A DNA stretch of 64,000 nucleotides. Origin: Styela clava (lineage: Eukaryota). Below the pieces are notes generated by a model, which saw only the letters and a list, made by a program, of their open reading frames with translations, ran no database searches and was not told the DNA's origin. The position numbers and the translations under genes were made by a program. The stretch lies in the NCBI RefSeq assembly GCF_964204865.1, contig NC_135254.1, positions 19,468,001 through 19,532,000 on the forward strand, given 5' to 3'. Shown in pieces: positions 13,347 through 64,000 of this stretch; within the stretch, counting starts at the first letter, position 1; each line of letters opens with the position of its first letter.

Positions 13347-14325
13347 CTGTAATAAATAATTCATCATTCCAGATGTGTAGCGAGCTACATTTTTATAACA
13401 CTTTTAGTTATTCTACAAAATTTAAATATGAGGAAGAAATATTGAACTATCATTACATCAACGTGTATTAGCACATAAGAAGGATTAATTATCATTGGTT
13501 AGTTTTACAGACAACGGTTTACAAATCTCCATTATAATTATTTCGATAGTATATACCTCCCTTTTTCCTCAAATTCAAACAGTATTTAAATTGTTTTCAC
13601 TTTAAAATCAAAAGTCTCATGTCAGTCTATGTTTAATAGTGCTCAGCCTTAACAAATAATTGTGCAATTTCATGTTCATTACCAAATTTATACTATTTCA
13701 TTTATTACTCAGGCTTTTATTGTAAGCTTGCTCAAAGCAAATATCTATGTAATAAAGTGAATTTTTATCTGACAGTGTACAAAACAAAGTTAAAATTCCA
13801 CACTGATTGGGAAATACTGCTAAGTCACGAAGTTAAATTATCATTCTCAAAATACAATTTTTAGGCACTCTTTTTTTATTCTTAGACATTGTTATGGTTT
13901 TCAATTCTACTTTATTGATAAAAGGAACTGCATTTGAATATAAGTTTAAAATTCCACTGTCAGGTCTTATACAATGTAGAGTTAGTCATAATATGCGAAT
14001 AATTTGCATAATAAGAAATGCTTAACAAGCAGTGACCAGACAGACGTTAGTCAGAATTTAGATGAAACTTATCTGAAATATTATTTCTATTGCTAGTCAA
14101 TGTTTATGTGATGTACAGCTAGCCTTTTATACTAATAATAAGGGGGGAATGGCCAATCCACTATTTACAGTCAAGGTAAATTTTTGGAGTAGTGTGGCAG
14201 TTATTAATAAAACTAAACCCATATAAATTTATTTTTCAGTCACTATCTGTTGATATGCGTTACCTCAGCTCTCATCCAATAGGCTTATACATGTTTGAGT
14301 TGTAGTACATAGAAGAGTTAATGAT

Positions 14326-17038
14326 ATGAATATCAGAACATTGTTAGTGACTTTGATTGTGTCAGTAATTACGGTATCTGGGGATGAAACAGATACCAAG
14401 AAAGTGTGGTGTGTGGATGATACTGTGATGCAAAACACTGATCTTGTCAAAGGCATTGATAGAGATGATTTGTGCAAATCAAGTATAAGTAAGTGCTTCC
14501 CTTTTTATTGTATTGTTTCTTATGATGGAAGTGCATGTCATCTAAGGTAGCAGTTCCTTTACAGCGATTACAATCAATAGTACATTGTGATAATTTATAA
14601 CTAGTTTAATCCATAAGCAAAATATGTTTTGTAATAATGCTTATTTTTTTCAAAATGTGCTACCAATCACTGATCTCGGCTAAATGAATATAAATTAAGG
14701 ATAAGGCTAACCATGTATGTCATATATACTGTTAGTTTTACTCAACTTTTTTCATATGTTCAGTAAATGCCACACCATGGTCAGATGAGGAGGATAAAAC
14801 ACCAGCTAAACCAGAAAATCTCCAACTTCAAGCCCGCACTTATAAAACTGATGATGAAAACTCATCAAGGCAAATAGCTGTGTTTATATCATGGAGACAG
14901 AAAAGTAAGAAATTCTTTTCAGCCCTACTTTTATTTGTTTTCAAATTTACACTGGTCAGCCATTGTTTTGTCATTGAGTGGATGCTCTTTCAGTAAAGAT
15001 AAGTTCATTGCACTGTGACAAATTATCACTGTTGAGTTCAAAAATATGAATTTCCACAGTGGGTGACCTGCCTTCCTCACAAAGTTACTATGTTGAATTG
15101 AATTTTATCAATCCTCCTGGTCAACACAAGCAATATACAATGACATGGGATAATGCTCTGTTGAGGGAACTGGAGAATAGTACAGCACATTATGTAAGTT
15201 TTTTTAAAATTAAATATCAGGAATTAGTCTAGGGTTTCATATTTACCATGGGGAAAATAAAAGGCAGAGCAAACTGTAACTGATGATCAAAGGAAATTTT
15301 TGTATTTTAAAATTATAGGTGAAAAAATATATTTTTATACAAACAGGTTGAATTCAATTTTATCTACTGCAGCAGAATTGAAGGAAGCTACCATATTGGG
15401 CCCGGTGATAAATACCGGTTCAAGATACAAGGTTTACCCATGTATCAAGAAGACTCAGATCCCCAACTTGTCGCTGGGAATATAGCAATACCAGGTACAA
15501 AAAAATACGAAACTACACTTCCACAAGAAGTCCGTCAAACTTTTGATATTTAATTATTATTTACACTTTCAGGTTGTAGAAAAAGCAAGGAAATTCGAAG
15601 ATCTGCAGCTTGCCGCAGTCATACAAGAAGAAAGAAACGTCCAAAACCTAGTATTATTATTATTGTTTATTACTATTGATGAGAATGAAATCCTTTGAAT
15701 CAAAATAAATAAATGTACCGTACATAAAAAATAGAATAATGGACGATGGAAACTGATGCGTATCTGCAATACAATGCAAATCCATTAATTCTGATGATTT
15801 GTTTACAGTAAAGCCTATCAATGAACCAGCTGAAACTATCGATAAAGAAGAACAACCGTCTACTGAATCTGCAAAGAATATGAATGAAGCACAAAATCGC
15901 TCAGGTATTCAAAGAGTAGTGCTGGAAATAAATTCCTGATAAAGAAATTAATGTTTAATCGAAAAATAATTTACTTGCAGGAGATGATCCAGAAATAGCT
16001 GATTTTACCTCAACAAATATTGTTTTCATTATTGTTGGAGCGGTTATCATCGGCGTATTGATTATGGCATTATTATTCATTTTATGTCGTAAGAGGTTGC
16101 ATGGATGTAAGTTATTTTGTAATACTTCTAAGCCTTTTCATGTTTTGTGCATGACTCGCAAGTCACAATCACAACTTACCATATTTCTTATCTATTATTT
16201 AGATATTCTTCCGAAGAAAAGCGTCGCAAAACGACGTGTTCTAATAATCAGCAGTTTAGAAGAAAAATATTCGCAAGCTATTAACATGCTTTTAAAGATT
16301 TTTGACAAGATTGAAAGCATCAAACTAACATGTAATCTACGACAGAAAATTGACATAGGAGAGCATGGAATTGTAAAATGGGTGACAAAAAATGTTACTG
16401 ATGCTGATATTGTAGTTTTTGTCATAGGCAATAAAAGTGAAGTTGCAAAGGATCACTGTTCTGAAAACTCCCCATTAGAAGTAGAAGAAATTGAGAAACA
16501 TCAAGTTGGGCAATCACTCAATACAGCAGAAACCATCATCAATTCGAATAAGTGCGTAAATTCGCACAAAAAATTTATAGTACTCGACCTACATCATCAT
16601 GTTAAGAGGGAAGATTTGCCGATTTTCAAGCACTATAGATTGCTATCGGATTTCAAAAAATTCACCCATCATGTTATTGGAGCATCACATATCATGAGCA
16701 CTAGTGATAAGAAGATTTTCAGTAATCTACTCTCAAATGCACAGCTGGGATATGGAACAAAAATTACAACCGCGGAAATAGATGAAGATGACGTTATTGA
16801 TCCAAAAAATGCTCCCATTTCTGGCCAAAATAATTTTGATTCTCTACCATTCCCACCTGCAAATATTGAAGAAGGACAATCCCTGGCATTGAATATTGAT
16901 GATACTTCAGCATATGTTGATGGACCTCCATCGTGTGAAAGTAATCAGTCTCACGAGTATGTAACAACTGATTATAACAATCCAGGACAATCTTACAGAT
17001 ACCTCAAGGCAGGCGCTAGACCAAAAACAAAATGCTGA
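14326..17038 (+). CDS. IL-17 receptor-like gene A (signal peptide, single FnIII, stalk, TM, SEFIR, tail)
   Basis: Exons 14326-14488 (signal), 14764-14904 (PWSDEEDKTPAKPENLQLQ...IAVFISWRQK), 15060-15193, 15347-15494 (VEFNF...PGDKYRFKIQGLPMY...IAIP), 15573-15650 (GCRKSKEIRRSAAC), 15809-15904, 15981-16106 (TM IVFIIVGAVIIGVLIMALLFIL), 16203-17038 (RRVLIISS...IGEHGIVKW...ADIVVFV, SEFIR-like). Confidence 0.88.
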
Positions 17039-17656
17039 CATTGATAATAATACAACCAAGTCTATATAAAATGTTGGGCACTAGAATCTGACAAGGGCAT
17101 CCTTATATTTAAATGAGCTAGGAATGGAGTTGGATCTGAACGCTGGCAAAATGTCTCGCATATCATACCATTATGCAATAAACACACTTGAAAGCCATTG
17201 ATTTTTAAAATCATTTATTCAGCTTCCTATGATTTGTTCTTCCTATTGCCTGATACTGAACATTCGGTTACTTTACTTATTACTTGGGTTTATAATAATA
17301 TTTTCATGTGATTCTATGTACACTCTGCCACACGAATAATAGCTGATGCAGTTTTTATTTGTCTTTCTATGTATATTACCCTTATCAAAATAAACACCAT
17401 ATTGTTTTTTATTATTATGCTAAAGTGTGCAGAATATTTTCGTTAATGTCCATAGACAGCATCTTATTTTTGGGACATTTAAAACTACTGCTCACATTAT
17501 AAACTTTTGTGCAATTTTTTCTATGATATAGATCAGCTAAATGAATATCATGCGATGAATAAAGAGATCGAGATCCTAAAACCGCATTGCGAGCGCGGAA
17601 AGTTTTTATTAATAGGTACAAATTTTATTTCTCTGGGAATGACCATTACTATAGAC

Positions 17657-17836
17657 CAGTGGTTCTTAAACTTTAAGCCAGATAGGAAGGAAAAAGTATG
17701 TTTTATTCAAAAAGTACGTGGATGGAACGTAAATTTTGTAATTATCCCAAATAAGGCGGGCAAAATCAAATCTGAGAAATATTTTTATTTTCAATAGCTT
17801 CACACCCCCTAAAGAAATTGTGTATGAGAACCACTG
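17657..17836. mobile_element. hAT-type MITE (related truncated copy at ~23040-23240)
   Basis: TIRs CAGTGGTTCT / AGAACCACTG. Internal segment AAGGCGGGCA(A/G)AATCAAATCT...AAATATTTTTATT...TTCAC(A/G)CCCC is shared with 23140-23200. Confidence 0.75.
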
Positions 17837-18175
17837 CCATATAACATCTGATGTTTTTAATATACGAATTTAACTCTGAAAAAAAAGGTGATTTTTATTC
17901 AAAAGTTTGCAGTTATACTCTGATCAATGTTATTTGCTATTCTTTTCTCCAGAATTGAAGTTATAAAAAATTTCTAACTTCCGTTATTAATGTTTTTTCT
18001 TATTATTGTATTCATATTCAGAAAAACTAGTTTGTGATTGTGATTAACTGAACTATAGTACCTATTGTGAAATGTTTGTTCCTTTTTGAGGTGTTATTTT
18101 GTTGTATTTGTGAGCCAAAAGTTTCAGAAACCTGATAATGATTTTTTTGTGTTTATATAGATTATATAGGATGTA

Positions 18176-21100
18176 ATGATAGCAAGTCTTATAAAATGCA
18201 TCCTGCTTTTACTGATGTTGCTGCTACCTTCTTCATTCTCTATGAATTGCATGTCGGGAAAAGGAAATATATGCACATGCAAACAAAGTATGTTGTTTTT
18301 ACATTTAAGTATGACAATTTGTTCACTGTTTCGAATGTATATATCCAGAGACAACATTTAAGTCCAATCATAAAAGTATTAGCCATGAATATCTTAATGG
18401 ACAGAATTCATTCAGCTGGGCGGCCTCGGAATTGACTTAAAAAACCAAGTTTGTTTTACTCAATATGGTTTGAGAAATGTGATACATGCTTAAAACTCAA
18501 GAATTTGCTGTTCATGTAACTTATTTTAAAGAGGGTGTGTCAAGATAAAAGGGTGATTGTATTGAAATTTTGAAAAAATCAAAAATAGTTTATGACATAA
18601 AAATTTACAGAACTCTTATATATTTAAACCTCGCCAAAATTCATGGTTGATTTGATATTAAAAAAGATGGTCGATAAATGAAGGTGTGTTATAGAAAAAC
18701 GCAGAAATAACAATGATTTATTTACAACAATATTTTGACTGATATTGGTAATTTATTATTACATTTTACAGGACGAGGAATACCGTGGTCAATACCGACA
18801 GATAGAACCGCTCCTGCTGTGAATAATGTCAACGCCCGATTTTTTGTTGAATCCGAGAGGATTGGCATTAAAGTAAAATGGAGCTATCGAGGTGAGGCCG
18901 TGTGTACGCTAATTTGTTTATTAAGGCCAAACAACGAATTCTATTTGATTTTCGTTTATGAAGTCGTAATGTTATTAAATAAAAACCGAGCCTTACTATA
19001 TTTGTAACTTATCTTAGGTATAATAAATTGGAGAACATTCAGGACATAGTAGCTCATTACAAAATTTCAGAAAGCCTCATAAATTATAAAATATTTATAT
19101 CATGGTAGTGGCCAAGATTTCAAATTAGCTCTCTGTCCTGGTTAAATAAAAGCTTGTTAATTTCCATATACAGTTATGTATTTGCCAGACATTTCTGGAG
19201 GATTTTTGATTGAAGTACTATATTCTAAAGGTGACCCAAAATATTATCACTGCAATGTGACAGTTCAAAGAACTAGATCAAAGAAACCCGCTGTAAGTAT
19301 GCTATTAGAATTTGGTTAAGTAATCAATTATTCTACCCAGCTATAGAAATTCGTATAATAAGATTATAATACATTTCAGATTACATTTCAATTCATATAT
19401 GGAACTGGTACTGTACGACCAAAGGATGAATTTCTGTTTAAAATATCATCACTTCCGCTCTATACTTTTGATAGCAAGCCATCTAGCGAATCAGTTACAT
19501 TACTTGTTAAAGGTTAGTATTCAGAAAAACATTAGGAATTGAAATTCTATATCATACTCGGTTCTGATGGCATTGTGAATATTACATAAGATCAAATAAA
19601 GCCTGAACTCATTGTATTTGATTTCCACAAACAATAGTTCTTCCGAGTATTGTGGAAATGACCATGTTTTTGATTCTATTCTGAAATGAACTAATTCAAA
19701 AATTGAGATCAGTTAGATTATGATCAATGACAAGTACAAACTTAAACTAGCATCCCTAGTTTACTCAACACTGTAGGTTCCACATGCTACAGACAATGAT
19801 TTTTTTTCCGCATACGGCCAGAAAACTGCATCTCATTCGGTGTAATACTAACTAACACATTATTACGCATATATATATCTAACAGGTTGCAAACACAAAG
19901 ATATATCACGAACTATATACTGTAAAAGAGACAGAAAAAAAGTTTCTATCAGGATAGATGAGAACCCAGTACATGGTGAGCTGGCATTGAATTGTCTTTC
20001 TTGGTAACACTAATTGTTATTTGATATGGAGGGTATAGGCTCAATGCACTGAGGCCGACTAGAAATGAAATTTTGAAATACCAATAACATATTTATATTC
20101 AATATAGGCTATACTGTATTTCTGTTAGAATTTGAGCATTGACTTTTTTCAGATCAAACAATCTTTGATCAAAGAATCTTTGTTACCCTTTTTGTGTTGT
20201 GTGCGATCCTCATCACTCTACTGATATTTTATTTTCTGGCCATCATATGCATATGCAACAAACCAGGTGGGTTCGGTTAATTGACACTAACTTTAGAGAT
20301 GGCAAGCCTCTTGATTTTGCTGCTTTTTGGTATTGAAAACAAATTTACCAATGACTTTGTAAGTGTCATCTGAAAAGCTATTTGACAAACTACATAGTTT
20401 CTGTGTCATAACTTCTATTTACTCAATATGCCAATATTTGTGTTCTGGTCAAAAATATAATTAAGAAGATTCAATTTAGCTGACAGTAAAATTTGCATTA
20501 TTTTTTTCCAGGATTTCCTACTCTGACTCGTGTTAATCCTAGAACAATATTAATTGTTGGCAATGTTGACAATGAAGGAAAAATATTATTGACTAACGGA
20601 CTTTATAACGTTTTACGTTCAAATGGAGGAAATAATGTATACACCATCTCCAATGTTCAAAATATGAATGCAATTGGACAAGAAGGAATAACTGTTTGGT
20701 TGTCTAAAAAAATGTCGACATCAGATGTTTGTATCTTCCTGACTGACAATGATCTGACAAATGACAATAGTCATGTCAATATCGCAATTGGTTTAGCAAA
20801 GAGCATGATATTAAAAAAACACCATATCAGAGCCACGCGCAAAAAGATCATTCTTGCTCACTGGAACAACACTATCCACCATGACAATATTGAAAATCTA
20901 GTATTTTGCCAACATTACCATCTCATAACAGACATCAAAAAACTATTGAAACATGCTCTCGGAGAGCATTTTTATTGCACGCCTCAAAATTGTGACGATT
21001 CAAAGGAATTATTATGCAGATTATTATCTACTTTACCCCAATCAGAGTCTATAATCAGTAATGTCGCTAATATTAACGACCTCAGTAATACAGATGTCAT

Positions 21101-21176
21101 TGAAATCTGTGAAGAAGAAGAAACAATGAATATACTAAACCTAGATGAATTACCATCTATTGAATGCAACACATGA
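18176..21176 (+). CDS. IL-17 receptor-like gene B
   Basis: Exons 18176-18287 (signal + CMSGKGNICTC), 18772-18891 (PWSIPTDRTAPAV...IGIKVKWSYR), 19174-19292, 19380-19512 (ITFQF...KISSLPLY), 19886-19975 (GCKHKDISRTIYC), 20153-20266 (TM), 20512-21176 (RTILIVG...IGQEGITVWL...SDVCIFL, SEFIR-like). Confidence 0.87.
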
Positions 21177-21639
21177 ATTTCCGTCATCTGGTGTCTAATT
21201 ACTGATCTCTATCTAACCAATCTTGGATATTATATAGTACATAACATAGAAGCATCTGGAGAAAAAAAATTCGTACATTTTTTTTTAAATTAAAGACCTC
21301 AATGAAATGTACATACACAATTATGCAACTTGCCCTATCTAACTAAGCACATTTATTACATTACTAAATTTCCACTGTAATACATGAATTTTTTGTATCA
21401 TATATTTTTCTATTTTGTATTAAAATGAACCTGGTTGTCATTTTTCAATGATTTGTCATCATTGATGTTGACAAGCATTCCCATAATTAATGTTATTTAT
21501 GTAGAATTTAGGTAGGCCCCATCAATGCTATACATTTATTTATACTACAATTTTCAGGTTTTTGTATTTTCAATACATTATCACTTGTGTTGTTATGCTT
21601 AACAAAATATGTGTGTTTATTTTTAGATGGTAGGCTGTA

Positions 21640-24600
21640 ATGCAGAACTATGGGTTAGCTTTATGTTTGTTTCTGATATTACTTGTTTGCTGGAGTAAAG
21701 TGGTTGATGGTAAACATATTGAATGCAGGCGAAAGAAGTCAGAAAATTCAAAGTATTTAAATAAAAGAAAATGTTACTGTTATAATGGTAATAATTTTGT
21801 ACGAATCTAATACTACTTGATATCAGGGCTGTGGAGTTGAAGAAAATTTGCGCTAATCTCGATTCCAACTACAATAACTGCAAAAGTTGTTTATTGGAAA
21901 TGCTTGGTCAATTCAAATTCTGAATCATGACTACAATATCAATAAAAATATGCAAAACTAAGACACCAATTTCACAGCCTTAGGTAATATTCTTTAGATT
22001 ATATCTGCACGTTCACGATCAAGATATTCTCTTTAAAGATAGAACAATGGCTTTTTGAAATTAATATGTTGGAACTAGGTGGGTACGAACTTGGATTCTC
22101 AACCAAGAAACAACGTGCCCTGTTGATACATTGTTGCGTCACAATAACCTTTCAATTTTGTCATTCTCTTGAAATTTTAGAATGTCCACTACTGAAGGGC
22201 TTTTGCTTGTAAACAGTACTCGCCCCTCACTTGAATTCCGGGAGAATTCTTGCTAACATACAGAACCAGCAAATCCCATAGCGCGCTGATGCTGCTTAAT
22301 TTGAAAATGTCAAGCAAGATAATAAGATATTCGTTCGCTGAGGGAAATATTATTTTGACCAGTAGAATTGCCATTATTGCCGATTATTCAAACTCTAAAT
22401 ATCATGCACAATCTATTAATAGTTTTTTTTATACATAGTTACAGGTCCTGGGTGGAGTAAGAAAGAAGTTAAACCAGCCCCAGCAGTTTACAATCTTTCA
22501 CTAGTTCAGACTGCCTATAATATCTCAAAGGGTGAAACTCGAATTGGTGTTGATATTACTTGGACACAAAAGAGTAAGTTTATGTCAACACCCATAGCCA
22601 AGTATTCAAGCCAAATACTTATGTATTTTGAAATAAATTACGAACAACCTACTAAATTGATATATTTTGCATCAAATAAAGCAAAATCTAGAACAAAATG
22701 CTTTTCTTTGAGGGTCACTGATCCATTCGTTTGACTTTTATAATCATTATGTTAAATTTTTCCTCTCTGCAATTGAATGTAAATAAAATAAAATGTTTTT
22801 GTATTGTTAGCTTTTAATTTTTTGATATTACAGGTTCTGATATTGAATATATAGACCCAGGATACTTCATTGAAGTTGTAGACAGAAGCAGCAATGAGGA
22901 TTGGCAATATAAATGTCCTATAAAAGTTAACAATTCAAAAACCGAAATGGTAAGAAATGTGCCTTATTATTAGTGATACAGGATTACAGGGTAACCCTCA
23001 AAAAACACAACCGATAATTAATTCCTTCTATGAACATGAAAAAAATATATTCGGAACTTCTGCTTGTGTATGATTGTACCCAAAAAAATATGTGGATGGA
23101 ACTTAAATATTCAAAATAAAGAAATGTAAATATCCCCAAACTAAGGCGGGCAGAATCAAATCTAACAAATATTTTTATTGTTGCTTAGTTTCACGCCCCC
23201 TCAAAAAATTGTCTACGCCTCCACCGTTAGAGAACCGCTATACTAGAATATGACCAAATAACCTGGGTTCTGTTTTGGTTGGTCATCCGGTATCTGTCTT
23301 ACACATACCAAAGTTTACACTAAAACGCAATGATATCTAAAAAGAGCAGTCCTTTTTTTGTGCGAAATTGTTTTATGAAACGGAATTGCTCATAGATAAA
23401 TATACTAGCATAAAATGGTTAAACCTACCGGTATGTGGAAATCACACTATGACTTAATCTTCTGTCATTAACAAGCGTTTAATATCTCAGCTATGACCCT
23501 AATTCTTGAAAATTGCTTATATTTTTTAGGTGACGTTTCGCTACACTTTTAAAACTATTCAACACCGTGATGAAATAGTACCAGGAAAAACTTTCTACAT
23601 AAAAATATTTGGACTTCCAATGTACAATAAAGATGACACGCCATCATCTGTTAAAGGCGAAATAAAAATACAAAGTACGCTAACGCTTGAAAGAGACTAT
23701 GATTTCTAATTTTGGTATATATTTTAAAGCATGAAATACAAAAAGCATGGGTGTTTTTTTTTAATCTGCCTCCAGTATGCCAGAAACGATATTACCCACA
23801 AATAACTTTTCCATTGTTTAAACCAATGATTCTGTAGATTATATTTAAACTACGCAGCAGATGCTTTCAGCAATAATAACCAGTGAGAGTTTCACCTTAC
23901 CACATAGATGTATGATCATTTTGCTTATTATTTACTACAGAATGTGGAAATACTCAATCCCGTATTCGTGATAAGAAGAAAAAAAATGACCAAAAAAACA
24001 AGCGAATAAAAGGTTAGCTTAATTTTCAATAAATAATATTTACCGTATATAGTCTCCCACTTCTTAAATGACTTAATATTATTTTTTAGGTTCAAATTTG
24101 CGCCCAAGGGATGAAAATAATGTAAAGAATAAAAATAAAGGTATATAAAGAAAAATATTATATTAGCTGAAACCGATTGTTATTTGAATTTATTCTTCAG
24201 AGATATCGTACCATTCGAAAATACAATACTTGTTTTTTAGTAACTCAACTTAATTTTCAGTTCAAAACAAATAGCCTGCTTCTGCCTAAATTATTTTTAT
24301 TTTTTTAGATTCAAATTTACGCCCAAAGACTCCATCCAAAATAAAGAATAATAAAGGTATAGTGATGTCCTATTTACTAAAACAGAACGAAATTGATTGT
24401 TATCTGAATTAATTTTATTACAGATAACGTTCCATTCGAACATACAATACTAGTTGCTGTATTCGCCACCGTAGCAGTGATCTCAGTTATTGCCATCATT
24501 GTTTATAAAACTTCACAAAGTAAGTGGGATCTATTTCTGAATAATACCATTATGCGTATCTAAATTGCTACTTAATATGGTAAAGTGTGTGAAAACAGAG

Positions 24601-25748
24601 GTTCAGGAGCACCGTGAAAACTAGTGTCAATGCGTTATTGCTGCAAACAGATAAATATATATCAACCTGATATCGTGGTACTTAAGCTCTGAACAAGGCC
24701 CTATATAAGCAACCACTGATATATCATGACACGTAAGAGGTTACTTTACTTTTCAGTTAAGAAATGTCTACCCAATTTATTACACTCTGGGTAAGATGAA
24801 GAGCAAGAAATTTTAACCAAGATTTGTAAACTGCAATACTAAATTTTTAACCGGTACTACGCTAGTGATTCTCATTTGGATGTTTATGTTCCATCCACTT
24901 ATTTTCAACATGATTTTTGAATAAAACATACTTTCGCCTCATTAGCTTACTAGTTGGTGAGGCGCGAGAACCACTGTGCTAGGCCATCGCTCCACGCGAT
25001 TTGTGTAAAAATGATAATATTCTGGAAATTCCTTACAGGGGAAAGAGAGAAACTACCAAAAGAAGTTCGACATATTTTAGTAATCGGAGATTACATTGAA
25101 AGATACACACCGGTGATCAATCGATTAATTGAAATTTTCAGAGAAGATAACGTTGAAATTCATTCAAATATACGACAAGTTTCAGAAGTGGGACAAAATG
25201 GTATCATAACATGGACGACAGAAGCACTGGAAAAAGTGGATGTTGCAATATTTGTTGTAAACAGCTTGTCACAACTTAGAAACGAAGATGTAACAGTAAT
25301 TGAACAAAACGGAAAAGATCAATACTCTCCTGTTAAAATAGCTATTAGAATCGCAGAAAACATTGCACTGAAAAAAGGTTTCAAAAACTCCAGAAAGAAA
25401 TTCATAGTTGTAGATTTGAACAAATGCATCGTCGAAAATCCCTTAGTAATGTGTGAAGTTTACAACCTGGAAAAAGACTTCAAAAGAATGCTGAAACATG
25501 CACTCGGACCTAATTATAAGGATGAAAATATAAAGCAAAAGAAAGAGACGTTAGCTAAGTTAATTTCCGCAAGTCGAAAACCAAGATCAACCAGACCAAA
25601 AGAAAGATCTCTTCAACCGGTGATTGATTTTGAAAAGTCAAACAATCTTGATGAATCCATTCCACACGAGTGTGAACAAATACCACTGAATTCTTTAAAT
25701 ATACAACAAGATCAGCCACCGTCTGTAGAATGTAACGTATGTAGGTAG
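21640..25748 (+). CDS. IL-17 receptor-like gene C
   Basis: Exons 21640-21709 (MQNYGLALCLFLILLVCWSKVVD, signal), 22445-22573 (GWSKKEVKPAPAV...IGVDITWTQK), 22834-22949, 23530-23674 (VTFRY...PGKTFYIKIFGLPMY), 23941-24012, 24090-24140, 24309-24356, 24424-24519 (TM), 25039-25748 (RHILVIG...VGQNGIITW...VDVAIFV). Confidence 0.85.
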
Positions 25749-35011: not shown

Positions 35012-35021
35012 GGAATTTCCC
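35012..35021 (-). promoter_or_regulatory. Consensus NF-kB site upstream of gene E
   Basis: GGAATTTCCC, i.e. GGGAAATTCC on the - strand, ~95 bp before the ATG at 35117. Confidence 0.4.
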
Positions 35022-47700: not shown

Positions 47701-48180
47701 TTGGATGAAATACATTCAATGATTGCGCGACTGAGGCATGAGTTCAATTTACAAATAGCAAGTAACTGGGAAAACAGAGTAATAATTGGTAAAGATTGGA
47801 TGGATTGGTATCAACAAGCCATGAGCAATTCCAATACTATTCTGTTTATAGTAAGCTATAAAATTTTTTGCGATAGTCTTACTTTGACTAAAACATTGCA
47901 TTCCGGGCAAGAAATCAAACAGGCATTCAATCAAGCACATTCTTGCAAGATACAAGGAAGAGCAGAAGTTATCATTCTTCTTACTGGTAAAGTGAACAGA
48001 ATTCGGATGTTGTTAGCGAGACAAAAAACACATTATGTAGTATACAGCATGCAGAACCACTACAAAGATTTTTTGCTGCATATGACGGGCAAAACAGCAT
48101 CAAAAGACAAAATAAAATATTTGATGAGTGCTATTAAAAACTGTGATCAAAGGAATGAAGAAGCAGACACATTAGTATAA
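41790..48180 (+). CDS. IL-17 receptor-like gene F (short cytoplasmic tail)
   Basis: Exons 41790-41943 (signal), 42337-42461 (PWPKDEDKTA...IALDITWSQK), 44334-44451 (NIEGYYL), 44837-44984 (VNFGYQC...PGDYIEVKLHSLPMY...ITIP), 45203-45280, 45639-45695, 46079-46120, 46638-46748 (TM), 47654-48180 (RRILVIAD...IASNWEN...SNTILFIVS). Confidence 0.85.
43392..44077. mobile_element. pogo/Tigger-like non-autonomous element in gene F intron 2
   Basis: Imperfect TIRs CCATATATTCTCATATATAAGCCGA / TCAGATTATATGCAAGAATATACGG followed by TA; subterminal TATAAGCCGA repeats. Confidence 0.65.
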
Positions 48181-49990: not shown

Positions 49991-52900
49991 ATGAAGGAAA
50001 TCTCATTATGTGTCGTCCTTGCTATATCTGCACTGACAGAGAATGTCCATGCCAGGAAACACTCAGTCAGATGTTTGGATGAGATTGATTCTGAAGACAT
50101 GCAACCAAACATAACGGATGGAGGTTTGCCTTGCACCGCAGAACTATGTGAGTACAAGTTATTATTTACTGCAGAAAAATACTGTACAAGATCCAAACTA
50201 AGTTTAGAATCATCCCACAAAATATACCTACTCAAAATATAATTAAATCAAGTCTCAGGTATTTTAAATCCAGTTTCGTTCTAATTGTCATTTGATATAA
50301 AATAGGTGCAAGAAAAATTTGTGATAACAGATTGAAATTTTTGATGTGTGACAAAAAAATATCTGAAAACTAAATTAAATATTTATTGGAACAACGATAC
50401 GAGTATAAAATAATAAAGATTATTGATAATAAAGATGAAAGTAACAACAATTATGTATCAGTAACAGTTCGTTTGAACAAATTACTGTGGGTTCTATGAG
50501 TTTCTTTTTTGCGTACGATGATGTCATCAAAAACTGCACACCTTGTGGCGGTTCCGCTTTCGCTTTAGTCGTGAAAATTGCTGTACTGGTAGTCTACTGT
50601 GACAGATTGCATACTACTACTTTGTTCTGGCCTTCTGCCTAGGGTGTTCGAGCACTGAATTTTTGTTCGAGTACCGCAGCATTTTTGACTAGAATTTTTT
50701 TGTCGACTACCAACTTTTAAGAGTAACGAGTCGTTCGACTACTGAGGTATCACAGTATATTCTTTGGATGTTTTTATACGAGAATTGGGTCATGGTAACA
50801 ATAAGTACATTTAACATTGTGCATTGCAAGCTATTGAAAATGTAACAAAATTGTTCATGTAAGCCTGATGTCAATAATTGCATTACATTTTATGTGGGCT
50901 ACAAAGAACTGTTTTTAAACATTGAAAAATGTTAATACTTTTTACCTAATGTAGTCACAAAAATGGCTTATAAATCTCAAAGTATGCTATATATCTAAGT
51001 AGTGTGGTTTCTGTATGGCGAAAAATAAATCACGGATTCCTGAATCATTTTTTTGTTTTTTCGTACACATTTTATTCTTCTTTTATTCGAATAACATATG
51101 TAAAGATTTTGTGAGCTTGACAGTTGTCTAATATGACCTTCAATATGTTGTATAAATCTTTTTTTTATCGCTAGCTGAGGATTTGTTTGAGGGTTATTAC
51201 AAATTCAATCTATTTTTAAGTGACCAATTTTAAAAGAATAGAATTATAAGATTCATCTTACCGATTTAAAGTGAAACAGATGTTTTGTTTTACCAATGCC
51301 AAATTTGTTGCGCAAAATGACTATTTCCAATCAAAATTTGTCACTTTCTGTAAATGTCCTCTTCCCCCTATTGTTTCTTTCAAAAAGGTTTTCATAAAAT
51401 TCACTTGTTTCACTATCAAGTGATTGTTTCACTACAGCATGAACATATTTTTGACTTCATCCTATCATCTCCATATTTTGAGGGGAAGACATTACCACTG
51501 TGATTACGCAATCCAATAGACAAATTCCAATGCACAGTATATACGTCACATTTGAGAATTTACGTAACCTTTCCACAGACGAAATATATTCTCTCACGTA
51601 CCAAATTTCACTTTCGTCTAAAAACAAGCAATCTCTTCCTATTTATCCCAAAATATTTGTTTGAATGTATTATTGTCGGATCCAATCTCGAAATTCATAT
51701 TTTCACACATTTCGGTTTCACAAAAATTGAGGAAATCTGATATTTTCTGTTTAGGGTGTCCACCTCAATGGAATAGAACACAGAAAATTCCACCGAAGCC
51801 ACGATTACATAAGCTTCGTTATTACACCTATAAAATTAATGGTAAAAATCAGCGCAATATTGGCCTGAGAATCAAATGGTCAAATACAGGTAAGAAACAA
51901 ATTCCTCACTATCAACTATTCTAATAATTACTAGAGTTCGACTGTTGATAATAATGCATTTACAAAACTATTTTGAAGAGCAGAATTCCTCTATTACCCA
52001 TGGTAAATAGAGACCCATTTCCTATATTGCTTAATTTTTCTTATATTACATTTTGTACTCTTTCCACTGGAAGCAAGGCTTTGTTCAAGAATCCACTGCT
52101 AGGTAGGAAAATACTTTAGTTTGAAAGGACTGCAGGCGCTCCGGAAGTATTTGTACCAAGATGACGTACAACCTGAACAACTCTAACATGGTAAGCATAC
52201 TATGTTCAGGTTGTGCACCATCCTGGTACAAATACTTTTGAGAGCACCAGGACTGCATCTGCCAGTTTCCGCATTGCCTACACAATTTATTGCACCACGG
52301 ACAAGGTGGTGGGCGTGAGCATCAAACCCACTCTCTATAAAATGGCGAAAAACTTATTTTTTTCATTTTCGGTAGCTGCCCCTTACTGTCCCAAAATGAA
52401 TTTAATTCTAATATATTTCAACTGATTGCATACATATGATTGGTGTGGTAGGAACTTACAGTCCTTCTAATTTGGTATTTATAAATATCCATCTTGTGAA
52501 GGTTTGTTTAGGACCAAGGGCAGCGTGGTATATGGTCACTCAAAAGGAGCCATAAATTTCTAATTATTCCTACAAAAATGAAGGAAATTTATTCAGCACT
52601 TGTGTTTGTGTATGGCTGTACCCAAATGTTTCAGTAATCTAGGACGCTTTGCAAAAAGTCAGGCCCTCTCCTTTTTGTTAGATCATTGTGAACAGCTATT
52701 TTATTTACAAGAGAAAGAGAGAGAGAAAAACATGTTTTAACATTTTGCAGCATCGCATTATCAAAATTACATCAAAGGATATTCTTTGGCAATGTTTAGC
52801 ATTAATATGATGTATGACTTTCGAATATGCTTCAAGACTACAAATGTGAAAAGCCAAATGGAAAGTAATGAGGTATGGTAAAGGATAGTGCATTTTGATA

Positions 52901-55900
52901 GATTATTTTATTTGATAGAAATAGGTTTGTTATATAAATGGCTTAGCAGTGTTTAATCACTTTCATTATTTTTTTTAACTCTGGTCAATAGAAGTGAGAC
53001 CTTACTATCTCTAAAAAGATGTAAACTTGATATTTTCATCATCATAGTTTATTGTTGTTAAAATATTCAAGAAACAATGAAAGCCACAATACTATAAAAA
53101 GACTTCACAAATCACGAGAAAAATTTATTATGCATTTTTGAATGTTGATCTGCTAATTACAAGAATTAACGCTAGCAGAGACTTAATGTCAAACTCATGA
53201 AATTGTTACATACATGGTAATGTATGAGATACATCTCACACTAACAATATCATGTTTTCAAGAAAGATTAAATCAACATCTCTATTTTATTACAATATTC
53301 TAATACATTATGAAGAGTAGTAATATGACATTCCAAGATTCTTGACATTACAATTAAGATTGAGTAATTTGCAACGTAATTTCAAATTTTCAAAGCACTC
53401 CTGTGTGCAGAAATCAGTGCAATGTTAAGTAAGTTTTTAATTCAATGTATCATAAAAGTAATAAAATTTGAGATAGGATAGGAATTCCATATCCATCCGA
53501 GTGGAGAGGAAAGTCGATTATTTGGCTTAATCATATGAAAAACCATGGCTTTTCGTTTGGTTACCAGTCTAAGTCAAGTGTGGGAATAGCAAACAAATTA
53601 TTTATTCGAGATTGATGTTACGTAAACCGCCTACGATGGTGAGAAATCCAACAATGCTCTGTAATTATTCTCCACAGGATTCCAACTTGCGAACCCATGC
53701 AGGGTGATCAGAGATGCGATGGCAATCTTATTGCCTCTCGCTTAGCACGATGCGTCAATTGCTCTTAATGTAGCTTCGCATCAACTGTTACATATCTTCA
53801 CCTGCTAAGTTTTACCTCATTTCTATAACTATAAGATTGGAAATTGTTGATCATTTTGATATCTTGAATCTTGAAATTCCCAACAACAAAATGAAACCAA
53901 CATCTGAATGAAACTTGTTGTTTTTATGTTTTAGATTGAATTTTTATACTGGTACAAATGTAAGGATGAAGGGTGTGTTCAAATTCTACCAGGAAAGACA
54001 TATTTTCTTGAGTTAGCTCCAAATCCTATGAGTGTATATAAAGAAAATGAGGACGGGATGCATGGCAGACGAAAAATCACCATACCAGGTATGTTAATTA
54101 TATTATCAAACAACCTTCAAACATGCCTTTCACTCTGAACAAGGTGCTATGCAAGCGGCCAATGATATCTAAAGTTATGTTTGGAGCTACTATCATTTAG
54201 GATCGGAATCTTTCATATTTGGGGTTAGGTGGAGGGACCAGAGGGATTTGTGCCAGAGATGTGTAACCTGCAATGTCAACACAGTTACGATAAGTCTAAT
54301 GCTTTAACTACTAGGCCATCGAGCCTTTCTTATAAATATATCTTGAAAGAACCCCATACGTTTTGACCAAATAAAAGTTTGATTTTTTAACCAAAGCATA
54401 TTCCATTGAAATAATACACAAAGATTTATTATTTATCAATTTAGGTTGTGATAATGAAAGAATAAGAAAATATCAAGGATGTCCTGGCAATGGTGAGTAT
54501 TGTATTTCGCAATTTTAAATTTCCGACGACATCAAGCAAAAGATAAGATAAATTGCATTCTTTATCAAGGTGCTTTTGAACGGTAGAAAAAACATTAGAA
54601 ACTCAAAACATTTCTCAAACACATAAGTGCATATTATTGATCTATTATTGGATTTAGACATCAGTTAAGATAGGATGGCAATAGACAAAGCGTGTAAAGC
54701 TATATATTCCAACTATTCAAAGTTGTTCATCAAACAGAGGCAGTGAGAATTGAGTACTAAACGATAACACCCAAACCATTTTTTTACGAAAGTCTAATGA
54801 TAGGAATAAATTTTAAATAATCCTTGACTTTTATTTATATCCTACGATCCCACAGAAAAAAACAGAAGGAAAAAGGCTAGACAGAACAATATTGAAATGG
54901 CCTCTGATGAAAGCACAATTTTGACAGCTGTGCTAGATCCAGGTACAAATGATCTTGTTATGTTTCGAAACCATGCTACCATGCAAATTTCAGTTTTATC
55001 GCTAGACCTGGCTTCTAATCTGCTTTTCGATTCATCTTACATATGAGAAGAGTTGAATGAGAAGTTCTTTAAATCTCTCTGCGACAGGGAGAAGTACAGC
55101 AATTATTTTACATACAACCCACCCATTTGAAAATGTGAATCTTATTCATTTGTCCAGCCAATTGTACAATTCGTACAGCTTTAATGCCCTATGAAGTGTC
55201 GATTACCTTGGTACAATGATTCATTTTTTTTACCAATTAATAAATTATATATAAATTCTAGAGACAATATATTCAGGAGATGGCGAAGAAGATACTTTCA
55301 GTTATACAACCACAAAAAAAAAGCACAAAGGTGACCTAAATATAAAAATTTTATATTTCTGAAGCAGTTTCATACCCCATACAACCTCCGGAGGAGGAAT
55401 GAGGTCAAGTGTAAACCGAATTTTCATTAAGTACTATATGGTATTAGGAAAAAAACTCAATTTCAAATTGGTCATAATATTTTATTTACAATATTGCACA
55501 TTAATAACAAAATATTGTACATATTATGCATAAGTATATTGTATAGGAAAAATTGGTGTAGTGTTGGGCTTATGAAAAAAAGTACACGATATGATAATCT
55601 CTGATTAATGAGAACTGACCTAAGAAACCATTGCAGATTTGGCAAAATGTCAGATAATGAGGAAGTTTACAGTACTTTTGTAAGTATTGTCAAGTGTAAA
55701 GAAATTTCAGTAACCATGCTTCAGAAAGCCTTTTTTTGCTTCAAGTATCTCCTAAATAGAAATCTGCCAAACAGAAACTTTTTTCAGTAATTATTATTGC
55801 TAAAAATTTTAGCTGCATAACTAAAGAATGAAAATCACTAATGATAAGTATACAATAATATAAATACGGTAATTAGATTTTCATCAATATAAAAAACAAT

Positions 55901-57643
55901 ATGATATAAATATGTTCCACACCACCAAGTGAGTTTGCTTTTTCCAGTATTCACTGGAATTTCTTCACAAAATGTTCAGGGCTTGATGCCAGACTTTGAG
56001 CAAACTTAGTATAGAATAGGATTTACATATTTGTCCTGGGAGAGAGAATAACCGATAAAACACCTTAATCATATGGTGAAACGCAGCCTCTCGTCCGGTT
56101 ACCAGTCCATGTCGGGTATGAGAATAGTTAGCCAGTTATTTGTTTCGAATATGTGGACTTAATGGTGGAGAAAACGTAAACCACCCTCCGTAAACTTGCA
56201 TTTAAAATATCAAAAACATTTTAGGATTAAGGTTCGAACATATTTATATTGTAGGGATATCGATGCAGTGATGCAACCAATGGGATCTAACAACTTTACA
56301 GGTACAGACATTAACAAAAGCTATCAAGTTGTCACATTGGTATTGACCTTGAGTGCACTAGCAATTTTCTTGATGTTTATATTGTGGATTGCAGTGAAGA
56401 GATGCAATTCAAAAACAGGTAATCACCACTAAAGGATCAGATATATCAACAAATATATCTTCAGATTGTTCATACCAGGGTACTCCCGTAGTGTGCGTGT
56501 ACCAGGTTAGAGTTAGGCCATAATTAGATTCCGATTTTGGCCCATGGGTTTCAGTTCCTTTACACAACTTGATGTAAAGTTGGCGAACAAAATTAGTTAC
56601 CTCCATATTGGTACACACGCTACTGGAGTGCCCATACCAGTGTGGTAATGTCTTGTCTGTCTATTTACACAGTGACAATTGTCACAGAACCAGACAATGA
56701 CATGAAGAATAAAGTGTTTCCATGTTTATTGAATAAGTGATTATATGAAATAAAAGCTGGAAAAGTATGGAACTTGAACTAAAAATTTCCCAGTTTGACA
56801 TGGTTTACTCGATTTTTATACCTTGATATGTTGGGCAATCCAAGTATCAGAAAAACAATTCGCCAAATAACTTCTGATAATGATAATAATTTCTGACTAA
56901 CTACTAACTACAAATTAGTACTTTAATAAGAATAATCACAATGTTTCATATGTCTAATACTTTTTACGTTTTTCTACTTTGTTTAAGTACAAACAAATCA
57001 GAAGGAAGTTCTTTTTCTTGAAAAGACAAACAACATGAATTCACTGCACTCACTGGCATCACAGTGGCTTGTCTCAGAAATCAAATCACAAGGTCATGTC
57101 AAAGTAACATACAGCAAATGGGAAATGCTACAACTTGTAGAAAGTCCTATGCTATGGATGAATGATAAAATAGGAAAAGCTGATATCATTGTTCTTCTTT
57201 TTGCTTCAACTGACACTCAGACATTGCCTAAATCGTTCAGAGTCTTGAATGATAAACCAAGTTCAAGCAAAAATATGGATAATTGGCTAGAAAAAAAATT
57301 CTATGAAATATCCGCTGCAAAACATCAAAAAAGAAAGTTCTATCAGGCATCGTTTTCTGACAACAACAACATCTCTTACCAGACTGCAACAATGAAAACA
57401 TATTATTTGATGGAAGATTTAAAAGAGTTCTATACTGCTATCTGTGGAGGTCAAGAATATTCCTTAATCCTGGACAAGACCCATAAATTGTACAAGTTGA
57501 GTGAAACTATAAAAAAATCTCAAAATCATGTCATTCACAATGAAGATAGCGGGATACCCAACTTTACAGATCTAAAAAATGAAAGTAGCCTGATACAAAA
57601 TAATGGAAGTGGAGCAAGAAGAAAAACAATTACAATCAAATGA
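49991..57643 (+). CDS. IL-17 receptor-like gene G
   Basis: Exons 49991-50148 (signal), 51756-51889 (PPKP...IGLRIKWSNT), 52751-52872 (NYIKGYSL...RICFK), 53935-54088 (IEFLY...PGKTYFLELAPNPM...ITIP), 54445-54492 (GCDNERIRKYQGC), 54856-54942, 55277-55330, 56255-56418 (TM), 56988-57643 (KEVLFL...PMLWMNDKIGKADIIVLLF). Confidence 0.86.
53473..53760 (-). mobile_element. tRNA-derived SINE, same family
   Basis: On the - strand TGACGCATCGTGCTAAGCG...GGGTTCGCAAGTTGGAATCC, (CCTAT)n tail, shared GGTTACCAGTC core. Confidence 0.7.
56012..56190 (-). mobile_element. SINE 3' fragment, same family
   Basis: ATAGAATAGGATTTACATATTT...CCTCTCGTCCGGTTACCAGTCC...TAGTTAGCCAGTTATTTGTTT, shared with the 37243 copy. Confidence 0.65.
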
Positions 57644-58366: not shown

Positions 58367-58376
58367 GGGAAATTCC
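58367..58376 (+). promoter_or_regulatory. Consensus NF-kB site between genes G and H
   Basis: GGGAAATTCC; near-consensus GGGAATTTCT at 58105-58114. Confidence 0.35.
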
Positions 58377-59518: not shown

Positions 59519-62500
59519 ATGGAGCAATATTTCAATACAAGATTATTAGGTTGCATTTGCATATTGCTTCATTTCATACTGTCTACCGTCAAAGCTGAGA
59601 ATATACATCATGAGCATTGTCTTCAATGGTGCATGACAAAGTATAATGTTAAGTGTTCTGAAATAGTGGAATGTGAAGCTCATTATAGTAAGTATTCTTT
59701 TAACTGAAACTAGTTTGTAGTTTCCCAAAGAACTGTTTCATTGATATTTGAATGAAAGCTAATAAGTTTGTCTGCTTTCAGCTACCAAAATGTGGTTTCT
59801 AATAACGTAACATGAAATCAGTCTATGTAATGAATAGTAAATCAGGTCCTGGTATAGTGACTAAATAGTTTTTTGATATTCATTTCAATAAATATTTATT
59901 AAAAGTGAAGATCCCAACATCAGTAGACAGATGGCAAGTGCATTAAAAATATACATGGTGTTAATGAAGTTCTAATTTTTTTTTAAATTGCAAAATGAAT
60001 TCATTGACGGAATATGAAGTTTGTTTGTCTTTATAGGCTTATGAAATTAAGTAAAATATTTAAATAAACACTGACTGAAATTAAACACACATGGTTAAGA
60101 TATATTGAGAAATGGTCTTCATAACAAAATTATAATTGCAACGGGACATCATCAAAAACCTGTTTATGGATGCCCACTGTATATGATAAAATAATTCAAA
60201 GTTTTTGTGATGCAAATGTATACTTGTGACCAGAGCAGAATATTGAAAAGGAGTACAAACAGGGATGCCAAAACAAACTGAATTGTATTTGATATATCGT
60301 AAATAATCTTTTGTTATGTGAATAATAAAGATATCTCTTCATTGAAAAAAATGAGACTTAAAGCCATGGAATCGGTATCTGGTAGGCCCATAAAATCATA
60401 TCTTGAATAAACTTTTAATATCTATAATTTTTTTATATCAATCTTAATATGCATATATTACCGGTAAGTATCATTATATTGTCTTTGAATAGAGCTGAAT
60501 TAAAAATATAATAGAATTGTATATTTACTAACAATAATTAATAATAAATTATTTTGTTTAATCCATTTCTGATATCAATGTTTATAATTGGTGTCCTATT
60601 TTACAGATGAAATAATATTAAAAGAAATAGGGGAGCCTCGTCCCATCGCAAATTACCTTAAGGTCACACCTTATTGCTATGAGCATGACAACAGCAATTA
60701 CAGCCATATTGGTTTGAAAATTTCATGGGAGATTAATGGTAGGTGCAGTAAAAGTATAAGTAATGCAATTCTGATTAGTCATATTATTACACCCGTAGTA
60801 TATGTAACAGGCTTAGTGTTAGGCTTTATTAACACTATTCCGATTTTCCTCAATCTTTCCGCTTAAACTGAGAATATTTTAGTTCTATTACGAGTTCGGG
60901 GACTGTCTGTGTTAGGCAAGTGAATATACCCAAGTACTTCTGGAGCGCCAGCATATGAGTAAATCCACGATTTCAGTTTAAAATATATGAACCTTATAAC
61001 AGACCTAACATTGATTATAAAAGAATCAGAAAATGTAATTGATGTTTTGATTCAATTATCAATTAAGACTTGATGGAATCGCTGTCCTAACCTAATTATA
61101 ATTTTATACAAAATCAAGTTTTTCCTTCCACTATGCAGGTCAGTATATGAGAGATGAGTTGGTGACCGAATTTCATCTGGAAATTCAAGAGTTTGGTGGG
61201 CATAGCACAGTATCCAACTTCAATGTTCGCATCACTCCGAACATGTCAATACCCTTCAACAACTACGTGAGTTACAGTATATAATGGTATAGAAAAGTAT
61301 ATAATCTATAACATTATGAATTTTGTTCAATAAGAATTGTTGAGAGTATTTTTAATATGGCGTAAATATACGTCATTTGCTCTGAACAAAGATCAGTAAA
61401 AGCAGCAACTGGTAGGTGATGGGATACTAAAGTTTGGAAGAACCAGAATTTTTCAGATTCTGCATTGCTTACTCAATTTACTACACTCCGAGTGAGGTGG
61501 TAGGCATGAGACATGAACCTGAGATTGTACCCTGCAATGTCAGCATATTGAAATAGAGATTTTTTTCTTTCAATCATGTGTCATGACATTGATTTAAAGC
61601 AATGAAGCTGCATAAAAAAAATAAAAAAGTGCTGGCTGGATTATCTACTATGAAATCCCTTTTATGAGACAACTTACATTTAACACTAAACAAAGCCTTA
61701 AGGGGGGCAAACATAATTGGCTTATTTATATTCTCACTTATGGCAACTTTTTTGGATTTCTTCCTTACGTGTTGTCTCATGTACTTTAATTTTTTGTACC
61801 ATGGCGGAGTTTTAAGTAAATGCAAACAGCAGTATTTATATTATTTTCAAGATTCATTTTGAGTATTTCTATCTTGGATGGGACAGTGATAATGTGCCAG
61901 AAATATCAGAGAACGTCAACTATACTGTGGAGCTTGATTCATTGCCACTTTTGGTAGAAAAGAAAAATTCGGAAATGAATATCACTCCTCAAACAATTAC
62001 AAGGGAATTTAAAATACCAGGTAACACAACATTAATATTTTGATATTCGAACGAACTATAAGATTTTGTACAGCTTCACGATTGATGTAACAAATTTTCA
62101 GTCCGGGAAACAGATTTTTTTAAAATGGTATCAACCTGATGCTATCATCATTTGAGCGGGATATGGAAATAACATTAGATGAATCAAATTTGGGCTGAAA
62201 ACTGCAAACGAAATCATGTTCAAGAGTCGAGACATTATTTTAAGTCATGAATTTTGTAAAACAGTCGTACTTTACTGAAGATGGTGAACTTCTTGATTAA
62301 TATTTTTTAACTTTTATGCTCATTTCACGACTCCAACTAACAACATATACTGGTTCCAAAGTTCATCAAGTTTGAGTCAGGTTAAATCTTGTTAATTTCA
62401 AAAATATTGGTCATTTTATGACTCTTTCCAGAGAAATTTTATTTATTATATTTTCAATTCAACAAAACAGATTTTTATTTTATTTTTTGATTTCTCATAG

Positions 62501-63195
62501 CAAATTTTCGTAAAATGAATAACTGCACAGCACCCGATGAATCAAGTAAGTCACATTCTTAATGTTTTAAATATTCACAAAAACTTAATCTGAATGAATA
62601 TGTAAAATATGTTAAAAATGTTCACTACCTACTAGTAATACTTATTCAAAATAAAAATATCACGAGTGAACATTGTTGTTATTACAAACTATATCTTCCT
62701 CCAGCCCACTCAGGAATAAGAATTACTGATTTCCATGCCATATTTATCACATGAACACAGTAATAGCAACTTTAATGCTTGCAATGTAACTGCATTCTTT
62801 ATGTAATATAAAACATGATGTTTGATCATATATGTATGATATAATTTTCCAGTTTGGAATTACATTACATAGATTTTTAGAATACAAGAAATATAGCAAT
62901 CAAGTTGCAGAAGAAATTTTAGTTTCAAAAAGGGAATTTTATTTAAAGATCTATATAAAATAACATAGAAAGATAAAAAATAATGAAAAAAGTAATATTT
63001 ATTATAATTATACTTTCTATTACGTAGTTGAACTAGAAAAGGAAGAAACAACAACAATCTCAACAACAACGACAGAGCAAAATGCTGAAATGTTGACAAT
63101 TGTTGTAACAGTTTCAGTCATCTTTGTGATATTGCTAATCGTCGTAATTGTTGGAATCGTTTCATTTTTGTTTCGAAAGGAGAAAGCAGTCCAAA
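59519..63195 (+). CDS. IL-17 receptor-like gene H, partial (SEFIR exon expected beyond the window)
   Basis: Exons 59519-59687 (signal + 4 Cys), 60607-60738 (IGLKISWEIN), 61139-61266, 61852-62020 (IHFEY...YTVELDSLPL...FKIP), 62501-62545, 63028-63195 (Thr-rich stalk + TM LTIVVTVSVIFVILLIVVIVGIVSFLF). Same exon phases as A-G. Confidence 0.82.
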
Positions 63196-64000
63196 GTAAG
63201 TAGCTATTAATCTCACGATTCAGAATTCAACTATACACAAAGTCTTCTTCTGTCATTCTTTGTCTGATAAGTTCGGTGGCATAGTGGCTTAAACATTAGG
63301 CTTAACTATTATAATATGACAGGTTGAAATCTCTGGTTCAATTCCTATACCTACCGCTTCACCCAGAGTGTAATGAATTGTGTATGCATTGTTTAAACTA
63401 AAAGATTCTGGTCCTTTCAAACTACAGTTACCTAGCAGTGACTGCTTGTGCAGAGCCTTGTTAGGAGTAAACGACATATAAATATGTCATAAAAAGTATT
63501 ACCGTGTGCCATCTGCTAGGAGTATACAAATTACCTTGCTCAGGCGACAATCTCATTGGATGAAACTCATTGATTTAATAATAGGTCGTTTTAGGGTGGT
63601 TTACACCGCTGATCAATCTCCAATGAATGGGAATTGGTTAACTGATTTCATACGAGGCATTAACTGGTAAGCGAACAAGACTATGCAAATAAAGAAATAT
63701 CCTCTCTTGAGGCATAATTATGAAATTTTAGATCACTTCAAGTCTTCTTCTAGTTTGGCATCAGAAAAACCTTGAAATCTTTCTACATGCTTAAAATAAT
63801 AATATTCTTTTTCTTTCGCCATGTCATTGCCAGTGTCATCTCGGCATGAATTACTTCAGTCCCCCCCCCCCCCCCCCCCCCAAGCAGCCACTAATATCTG
63901 ACAATTCAAACGAAGCAACTATTACCGAAAAGACTGGAATCTTTCACGTTCGCAATTGCCTACACAATTTGGTAAACACTGTCTTGAGGTAAGAGAATGG

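Follow-up and report, generated by a model that had tools for sequence, protein, structure and literature searches.

The DNA analysed here is a 64,000-nucleotide stretch of the Styela clava genome (the window; G000:C5:19468001-19532000), most of which lies in a single intron of the minus-strand gene MROH1. Eight plus-strand genes, R1-R8, are located within this intron (intron 32) from 14326 to 64664 and encode short membrane proteins related to the IL-17 receptors. We give a probability of about 0.68 to the reading that an intron-bearing founder gene entered an old, short MROH1 intron and was then duplicated in tandem in place, producing eight antisense receptor genes with a single FN3 domain. 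Coordinates beyond 64000 continue the numbering of the window.

The MROH1 host gene and its 51.8-kb intron

The window was extended by 200 kb, and the resulting 264-kb region, which contains 0 N, was searched by tblastn. The most 5' minus-strand HEAT exon in the window is identical to part of a 1,674-aa Styela clava protein that NCBI names MROH1 (P0001). Exact spliced alignment of this protein gives 40 exons on the minus strand, from 92153 to 8342. Intron 32 occupies 65169-13347 (51,823 bp), is GT-AG and phase 0, and has end scores of 8.7 (donor) and 12.0 (acceptor). The remaining 38 introns are 115-1,697 bp long (median 647). Intron 32 is thus about 80 times the gene's median intron, and its position is late (32 of 39).

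13346-13200, 12244-12138, 11859-11778, 11662-11507, 10987-10853, 10307-10205, 9022-8957 and 8424-8342, minus strand: MROH1 exons 33-40, by exact spliced alignment of P0001; HEAT_MROH2B_C
13347..64000 in the window and on to 65169, minus strand: MROH1 intron 32
65284-65170 (G000:C5:19533170-19533284), 1.2 kb past the window, minus strand: MROH1 exon 32, with the C-terminal end QRVTVTAFFSQ

The original prediction, made from the letters of the window, had placed a splice acceptor at 13348-13347 in the middle of the MROH1 protein and had held that only part of the gene was in view. Both points are borne out: the acceptor opens exon 33 at residue 1383 of 1674, and exons 33-40 encode 292 aa (residues 1383-1674) and the stop codon. 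It had proposed TBLASTN for the preceding exon, and exon 32 was found with an end close to the motif expected of it. MROH1 exons interleaved among the receptor genes, or a 5' part of MROH1 elsewhere or absent, would have spoken against the nesting. The tblastn search returned no MROH1 match between 13358 and 65167, exons 1-32 lie in the same locus at 92153-65170, and 28 of 28 scored MROH1 matches in the whole genome fall in this single locus.

The protein has four Pfam matches above the cut-off (PF23221, PF23210, PF21047 and PF23227), and its residues 1150-1674 share 32-51% identity with 87 other matches. It carries the full Maestro HEAT-repeat set, colinear with its orthologues, and the exon 32-33 join is free of gaps against the homologues listed. 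The older.1 versions of the proteins differ at 4-9 residues and therefore derive from another assembly; they keep the same junction and have adjacent accessions (XP_039269336-350). MROH1 is most likely cis-spliced across the array, judging by the database models of two annotation versions and by protein colinearity. If so, the 84-kb primary transcript crosses all eight genes. The claim that every MROH1 transcript reads across the cluster holds only on this proviso.

Eight receptor genes nested in the intron

All eight coding spans are wholly within 13347-65169, and all eight genes are opposite in strand to MROH1. Together they fill 75% of intron 32; the first begins 979 bp from the acceptor and the last ends 505 bp from the donor. 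At the edges of the array, R1 contigs begin at 14238-14260, and an ATTAAA is found at 64920, before the donor. Proteins for all eight genes are on record in the database, and those in the window are labelled 'uncharacterized'. The expectation that the whole array sits in one intron is correct for this cluster, with two amendments: the eighth gene ends at 64664, outside the window, and three more family members are found on two other contigs. In the following rows, TM stands for transmembrane.

14326..17038, plus strand: R1 (P0002, 573 aa, 8 coding exons), with signal peptide, one FN3 domain, stalk, TM segment and SEFIR
18176..21176, plus strand: R2 (P0114, a 412-aa model without a TM segment), with an in-frame candidate TM exon at 20153-20266
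21640..25748, plus strand: R3 (P0101, 466 aa), with GT..AG joints in RNA-like contigs
29006..33412, plus strand: R4 (P0103, 597 aa), with the strongest SEFIR score of the eight
35117..40609, plus strand: R5 (P0012, 523 aa), with the most degenerate SEFIR and no Pfam match
41790..48180, plus strand: R6 (P0013, 453 aa), which with R5 groups with the pair nested in NUP98-96
49991..57643, plus strand: R7 (P0003, 514 aa), a database protein; its SEFIR exon is above the Pfam cut-off
59519..64000 in the window, plus strand: R8 (P0102, 452 aa), with its SEFIR exon outside at 64117-64664; sister lineage of the gene nested in the RIM-binding-protein gene

The genes share a common skeleton composed of a signal-peptide exon, three FN3 exons, short stalk exons, a TM exon and a SEFIR domain in one last exon. 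Intron phases of 1,1,0,1 followed by a single SEFIR exon are found in 8/8 genes, and also in the family genes on contigs C1 and C9. Pairwise protein identity is 14-32% (median 18% over 28 pairs), and the DNA of the array has 15 short self-matches, the longest of 298 bp. The array is old, since identity is this low and DNA self-matches are this sparse. Recent segmental duplication was rejected on the same DNA matches.

Transcription was judged from four runs of three studies that are guessed to be RNA (none is recorded as RNA) and that cover 8000-26500. Seven of the 7 introns of R1 appear as GT..AG joints in 4/4 of these runs, R3 has such joints as well, and contigs lie over R2 and over the 3' exons of MROH1. 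The nested genes R1-R3 are transcribed. Contigs of MROH1 and of R1-R3 co-occur in the same bulk runs, which is uninformative on regulation either way.

Small features were noted within the array. The hydrophobic exon of R2 is skipped by the database model, so that either a secreted form with a SEFIR domain exists or the model is wrong. R3 has a duplicated short stalk exon (24073-24455, 73% DNA identity), and the number of stalk exons differs among the paralogues. A degenerate tandem repeat of about 160 bp is located in the R3-R4 gap (26446-26964), and a 106-bp direct repeat (98%) in intron 1 of R5 (35375-35587).

A receptor type with one FN3 domain

IL-17 receptors are defined as type I transmembrane proteins with an intracellular SEFIR domain and two extracellular FN3 domains (PMC11087794; this and the other PMC articles are cited from excerpts). 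R1-R8 have the type I topology and the SEFIR domain, and have one FN3 domain in place of two. Because the two-FN3 definition fails, the proteins are termed IL-17R-like and are not canonical IL-17 receptors, as far as profiles and one structural model indicate. The Pfam SEFIR profile scores above its cut-off in 3/8 (R1, R4 and the R7 exon), below it in 4/8, and not at all in R5. P0002 alone as a query found no PDB relative. A profile of the family matches IL-17RA residues 15-159 (D1) and the SEFIR domain of IL-17RB, with no match in D2. A hydrophobic TM segment is present in 7/8 receptor models, the exception being R2. It starts at residue 206-271 in the short receptors, versus 314-540 in six canonical relatives.

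R1 was the only receptor folded with AlphaFold (49 sequences; mean predicted local distance difference test score, pLDDT, 76). Its model runs from one beta domain through a short helical Cys linker, a disordered stalk and a TM helix to the SEFIR domain; residues 225-262, after the one beta domain, have a pLDDT under 50. The best structural matches found by Foldseek are IL-17RA for the D1 FN3 fold (E 3e-9) and IL-17RB for the SEFIR domain (E 3e-5). Like the solved vertebrate IL-17RA and IL-17RB (PDB 7uwn, 4hsa, 3jvf, 3vbc, 9ot1), these are type I membrane proteins with a D1 FN3 fold and a SEFIR domain; unlike them, they have only D1, a short Cys linker and a disordered stalk, and their identity to the solved receptors is 12-18%.

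The D1-only type is ascidian-wide, since relatives in Ciona, Clavelina and Phallusia carry the same short ectodomain. In the tree, the short-receptor group is split from ten canonical receptors with a support of 99. The Styela clava genome has at least 11 short IL-17-receptor-like genes in addition to canonical receptors on contig C4, and 32 matches to the IL-17 ligand profile PF06083, a lower bound, located mostly in tandem clusters on C2, C3, C5 and other contigs. Three IL-17 ligands are reported for Ciona (PMC8353272). In human receptors, D1 makes the tip-to-tip signalling contact (PMC9477748). From their domain structure, the short receptors are predicted to serve, via D1 and SEFIR, as subunits of IL-17 receptors or as co-receptors for the many ligands.

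A GAR[PRM][KR] motif is found near the C-terminus in 10 of the 150 relatives listed, including a canonical C4 receptor. It is present in R1, R4, R5 and R7 (at 17035, 33409, 40606 and 57640) and is kept despite <25% identity. The canonical IL-17 receptors form a tandem cluster at G000:C4:15087000-15136000, where P0139 (1062 aa) has two D1-like stretches. A separate intronless 803-codon receptor is located at C4:9073821-9076229. Two adjacent open reading frames with only a SEFIR domain (G000:C5:17290241-17292741) are candidates for Act1/CIKS-like adaptors.

Age of the intron and of the duplications

A metagenome scan with the MROH1 region gave 42 loci, many of them near-duplicates that represent about ten distinct exon peptides. 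The intron position is shared by 22/42 loci, in phase 0, with both ends readable and a length of 153-1,249 bp (L060 and L061 were taken as 406, and L075 was combined from two readings). Of the other 20, 3 have no intron there, 3 carry it a few codons further on, and in 14 at least one end is missing. Across all 42 loci, no SEFIR match is better than E 0.15. Because the same phase-0 position is shared and the intron measures 153-1,249 bp, the position of intron 32 is ancient and the intron is short elsewhere. The original prediction had called for the size and content of this intron in related species; at the metagenome loci where both ends could be read, it is short. In Ciona, the one family member located (P0108) and MROH1 sit on contigs that differ in length. 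A scan of metagenomes with the R8 alignment gave 57 pattern matches, 0 of them confirmed. One metagenome contig (L053) carries MROH1 3' exons and an extra intron at residue 1467, as in S. clava; its exon 34 is 69-81% identical and is likely from another ascidian. The contig starts in intron 33 and so ends short of intron 32.

In the receptor trees, which long branches make unsure, R1-R3 group together (100/94), R5-R6 group with the C1 gene C1a (99/97), and R8 groups with the C9 gene (100/99). The grouping of neighbours supports local duplication, with which it fits. R1, R2/3, R4, R6, R7 and R8 are each closer to database proteins from elsewhere than to one another. Such paralogue-specific relatives imply duplications that predate several speciations. 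One clade made of the S. clava short receptors and P0109 is not rejected (p-AU, approximately unbiased test, 0.62). R1-R8 alone as a clade were rejected (p-AU 0.005), largely since that group takes in C1a and P0109; when P0109 is included and C1a left out, p-AU is 0.11.

The notion that a founder receptor landed in the intron and amplified in place has fared unevenly. Amplification is favoured by strand, by intron phases, by the grouping of neighbours in R1-R3 and R5-R6, by the lack of stray MROH1 exon pieces and by the short ancestral intron elsewhere; a single founder is allowed by the data and unproved. Retroposition of the founder was rejected because the introns are kept.

Two further antisense-nested loci

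Two more family genes are located on the minus strand at G000:C1:14564213-14579020 (L032, L033, L041), inside the plus-strand gene NUP98-96. The autoprotease domain of this host lies upstream; of the host exons on either side of the pair, one before it corresponds to human Nup96 252-279 and one after it to 477-525. Single short exons beside the pair had no useful PDB match, and the two flanking conserved exons gave one. The likely host intron, between C1:14562404 and C1:14582354, is 19,949 bp, GT-AG and in phase, and the 16 other gaps in the candidate exon chain are 82-2,024 bp. P0112 (245 aa), the database protein of one of the pair, stops before TM and SEFIR exons that are present in the DNA.

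The third locus was found by a search with R8. It is a plus-strand gene of seven exons at G000:C9:12186540-12190217 (L116, L117), open for 428 aa and not among the 150 relatives listed in the protein search. Its nesting was predicted beforehand and then found. The host is a RIM-binding-protein gene on the minus strand; the intron that holds the receptor gene is 7,868 bp long and in phase, lies between C9:12191744 and C9:12183875, and interrupts an FN3 domain of the host. In the tree, the two C1 genes join R5/R6, and the C9 gene joins R8. A short near-copy of the upstream FN3 exon of the RIM-binding-protein gene is located 98 bp before that exon (12192047).

Thus each of the 3 family loci found is nested antisense, every time in a different and unrelated host, and two of the three are independent of the starting observation. 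The family count, from five protein and two family searches, is incomplete; no further locus turned up when the whole genome was searched with P0104 and with the SEFIR exon of R7. Six other IL-17-pathway loci served as controls: the C4 canonical receptor cluster, the C4 intronless receptor, the C5 adaptor-like pair and three ligand clusters. None lies between coding exons of one host, with flanks read by eye, flank genes named from motifs except for GAR1, and introns in untranslated regions possible; the left flank of the C4 cluster has no exon in 20 kb. We put the chance of repeated nesting very roughly at 0.1% (from fly rates, PMC3814207) to 5% (from insertion by target size). With two moves, the repeated nesting is suggestive only.

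Proposed mechanism and competing explanations

The founder would have moved at the DNA level, as its kept introns suggest. Duplications with breakpoints inside the intron would spare the MROH1 exons and hence be tolerated. If they lay on the host strand, the roughly fifty pairs of splice sites and the eight poly(A) sites would disrupt the MROH1 mRNA, and the antisense orientation would survive because same-strand, intron-bearing genes mis-splice their hosts. This is the explanation argued in Drosophila for the opposite-strand bias of intron-bearing nested genes (PMC3814207). Two offshoots, of the R5/R6 and R8 lineages, would likely have left later and persisted antisense in introns of NUP98-96 and the RIM-binding-protein gene. 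The most likely role of MROH1 is that of a passive host, which would be cis-spliced across the array.

Several results weigh against this scheme. Host-strand decoy splice sites and poly(A) signals are not depleted in intron 32 relative to the other introns (acceptors at 0.91 per kb against 0.78, donors at 1.24 against 1.01, poly(A) signals at 2.84 against 2.77), and one strict pattern found no recursive-splice-like motif there. Only one Ciona family member was located, and others could be in MROH1. R7 falls outside the other seven at the midpoint root, the direction of movement among the three loci is left unfixed by the tree, and the exon 32-33 splice rests on predicted proteins, not on reads.

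That last point is what favours an assembly error, or an MROH1 split into two transcription units around the array; ascidians use trans-splicing. We regard either as highly improbable, since the region has no gaps, the intron ends are canonical, in phase and good-scoring, and the proteins of another assembly keep the junction. A further point against a lone founder is the adjacent Clavelina pair (consecutive accessions): tandem paralogues exist elsewhere, and a small ready-made cluster, e.g. R7, R8 and an ancestor of R1-R6, could have been captured as a block and only partly expanded afterwards. The deep, long branches of R7 and R8, which another tree put among Ciona, Clavelina and Phallusia genes, and the old duplications would suit such a capture. 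It is nonetheless unlikely: the constrained single-clade tree has a higher likelihood than the free tree, and the careful tree keeps the S. clava short receptors, all of them, apart from the Ciona, Clavelina and Phallusia genes, if weakly (82/77).

Alternatively, the intronic antisense position may be selected, with the family depending on host transcription or chromatin through priming or damping by the opposing polymerase. The nesting of every family locus found, the third predicted beforehand, against 0/6 of the other IL-17-pathway loci, speaks for such dependence, yet we think it decidedly doubtful. Just two of the nestings do not depend on the starting observation, the three hosts have different functions, the family count is incomplete, nested genes in fly and mammals are mostly not correlated with their hosts (PMC3814207; PMC11694760), and the shared bulk runs of MROH1 and R1-R3 cannot show regulation either way. 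Bolder still, and rather unlikely, is the proposal that the ascidian D1-only clade consists of tip-to-tip co-receptors or decoys for many ligands, which in Styela became obligate intron dwellers that pass from one intron to another and rely on an opposing host transcript to be regulated.

Comparison with known systems

Nested antisense genes are common. As in Drosophila (PMC3814207) and mammals (PMC11694760), whole genes lie here in the host's largest intron on the opposite strand, and fast-evolving nested genes sit in a conserved host. Unlike those cases, eight multi-exon coding paralogues share one late intron, and one family occupies three unrelated hosts. For mammalian nested genes per host, the 95th percentile is 3-4 and the extremes are 77 and 186 (PMC11694760); the Styela array of eight is above this percentile and far below the extremes.

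Invertebrate IL-17 and IL-17R expansions resemble this system in having large ligand sets and receptors with degenerate ectodomains (PMC8353272; PMC11087794), the latter in about half of the IL-17Rs per subphylum (PMC11087794). Reported receptor counts are low, with 2 in purple sea urchin, 6 isoforms in mussel and 5 in amphioxus (PMC8353272; PMC11087794), versus at least 11 short receptors plus the canonical C4 ones in Styela. The excerpts of PMC8353272 and PMC11087794 describe neither a D1-only ascidian clade nor nesting. A literature search by titles and abstract openings, in which subscription journals are thinly covered, found no description of this locus. What sets this case apart is the scale of nesting for a small-intron gene, the D1-only receptors and the presence of one family in three hosts.

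In the founder scheme, gene duplication alone would have enlarged an old short intron about eighty-fold, in the group of invertebrates most closely related to vertebrates. The locus also exposes a set of IL-17-receptor-like genes with half the usual ectodomain. With three hosts for one family, the system offers a built-in test between two views of antisense placement in introns, a neutral refuge or a product of selection. Should the repeated nesting be due to chance, the locus is an ordinary nested cluster.

Genes beside MROH1

A multi-exon gene downstream of MROH1 (3196-978, minus strand) is presumably POT1-like, as read from its motifs; Pfam did not confirm this. Directly upstream of MROH1, an intronless 1,070-codon M1 aminopeptidase is located on the minus strand (L005:1353-4562; 95353-98562 in continued window numbering). 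This gene may be a retrocopy, as it is intronless while its genome neighbours have many introns.

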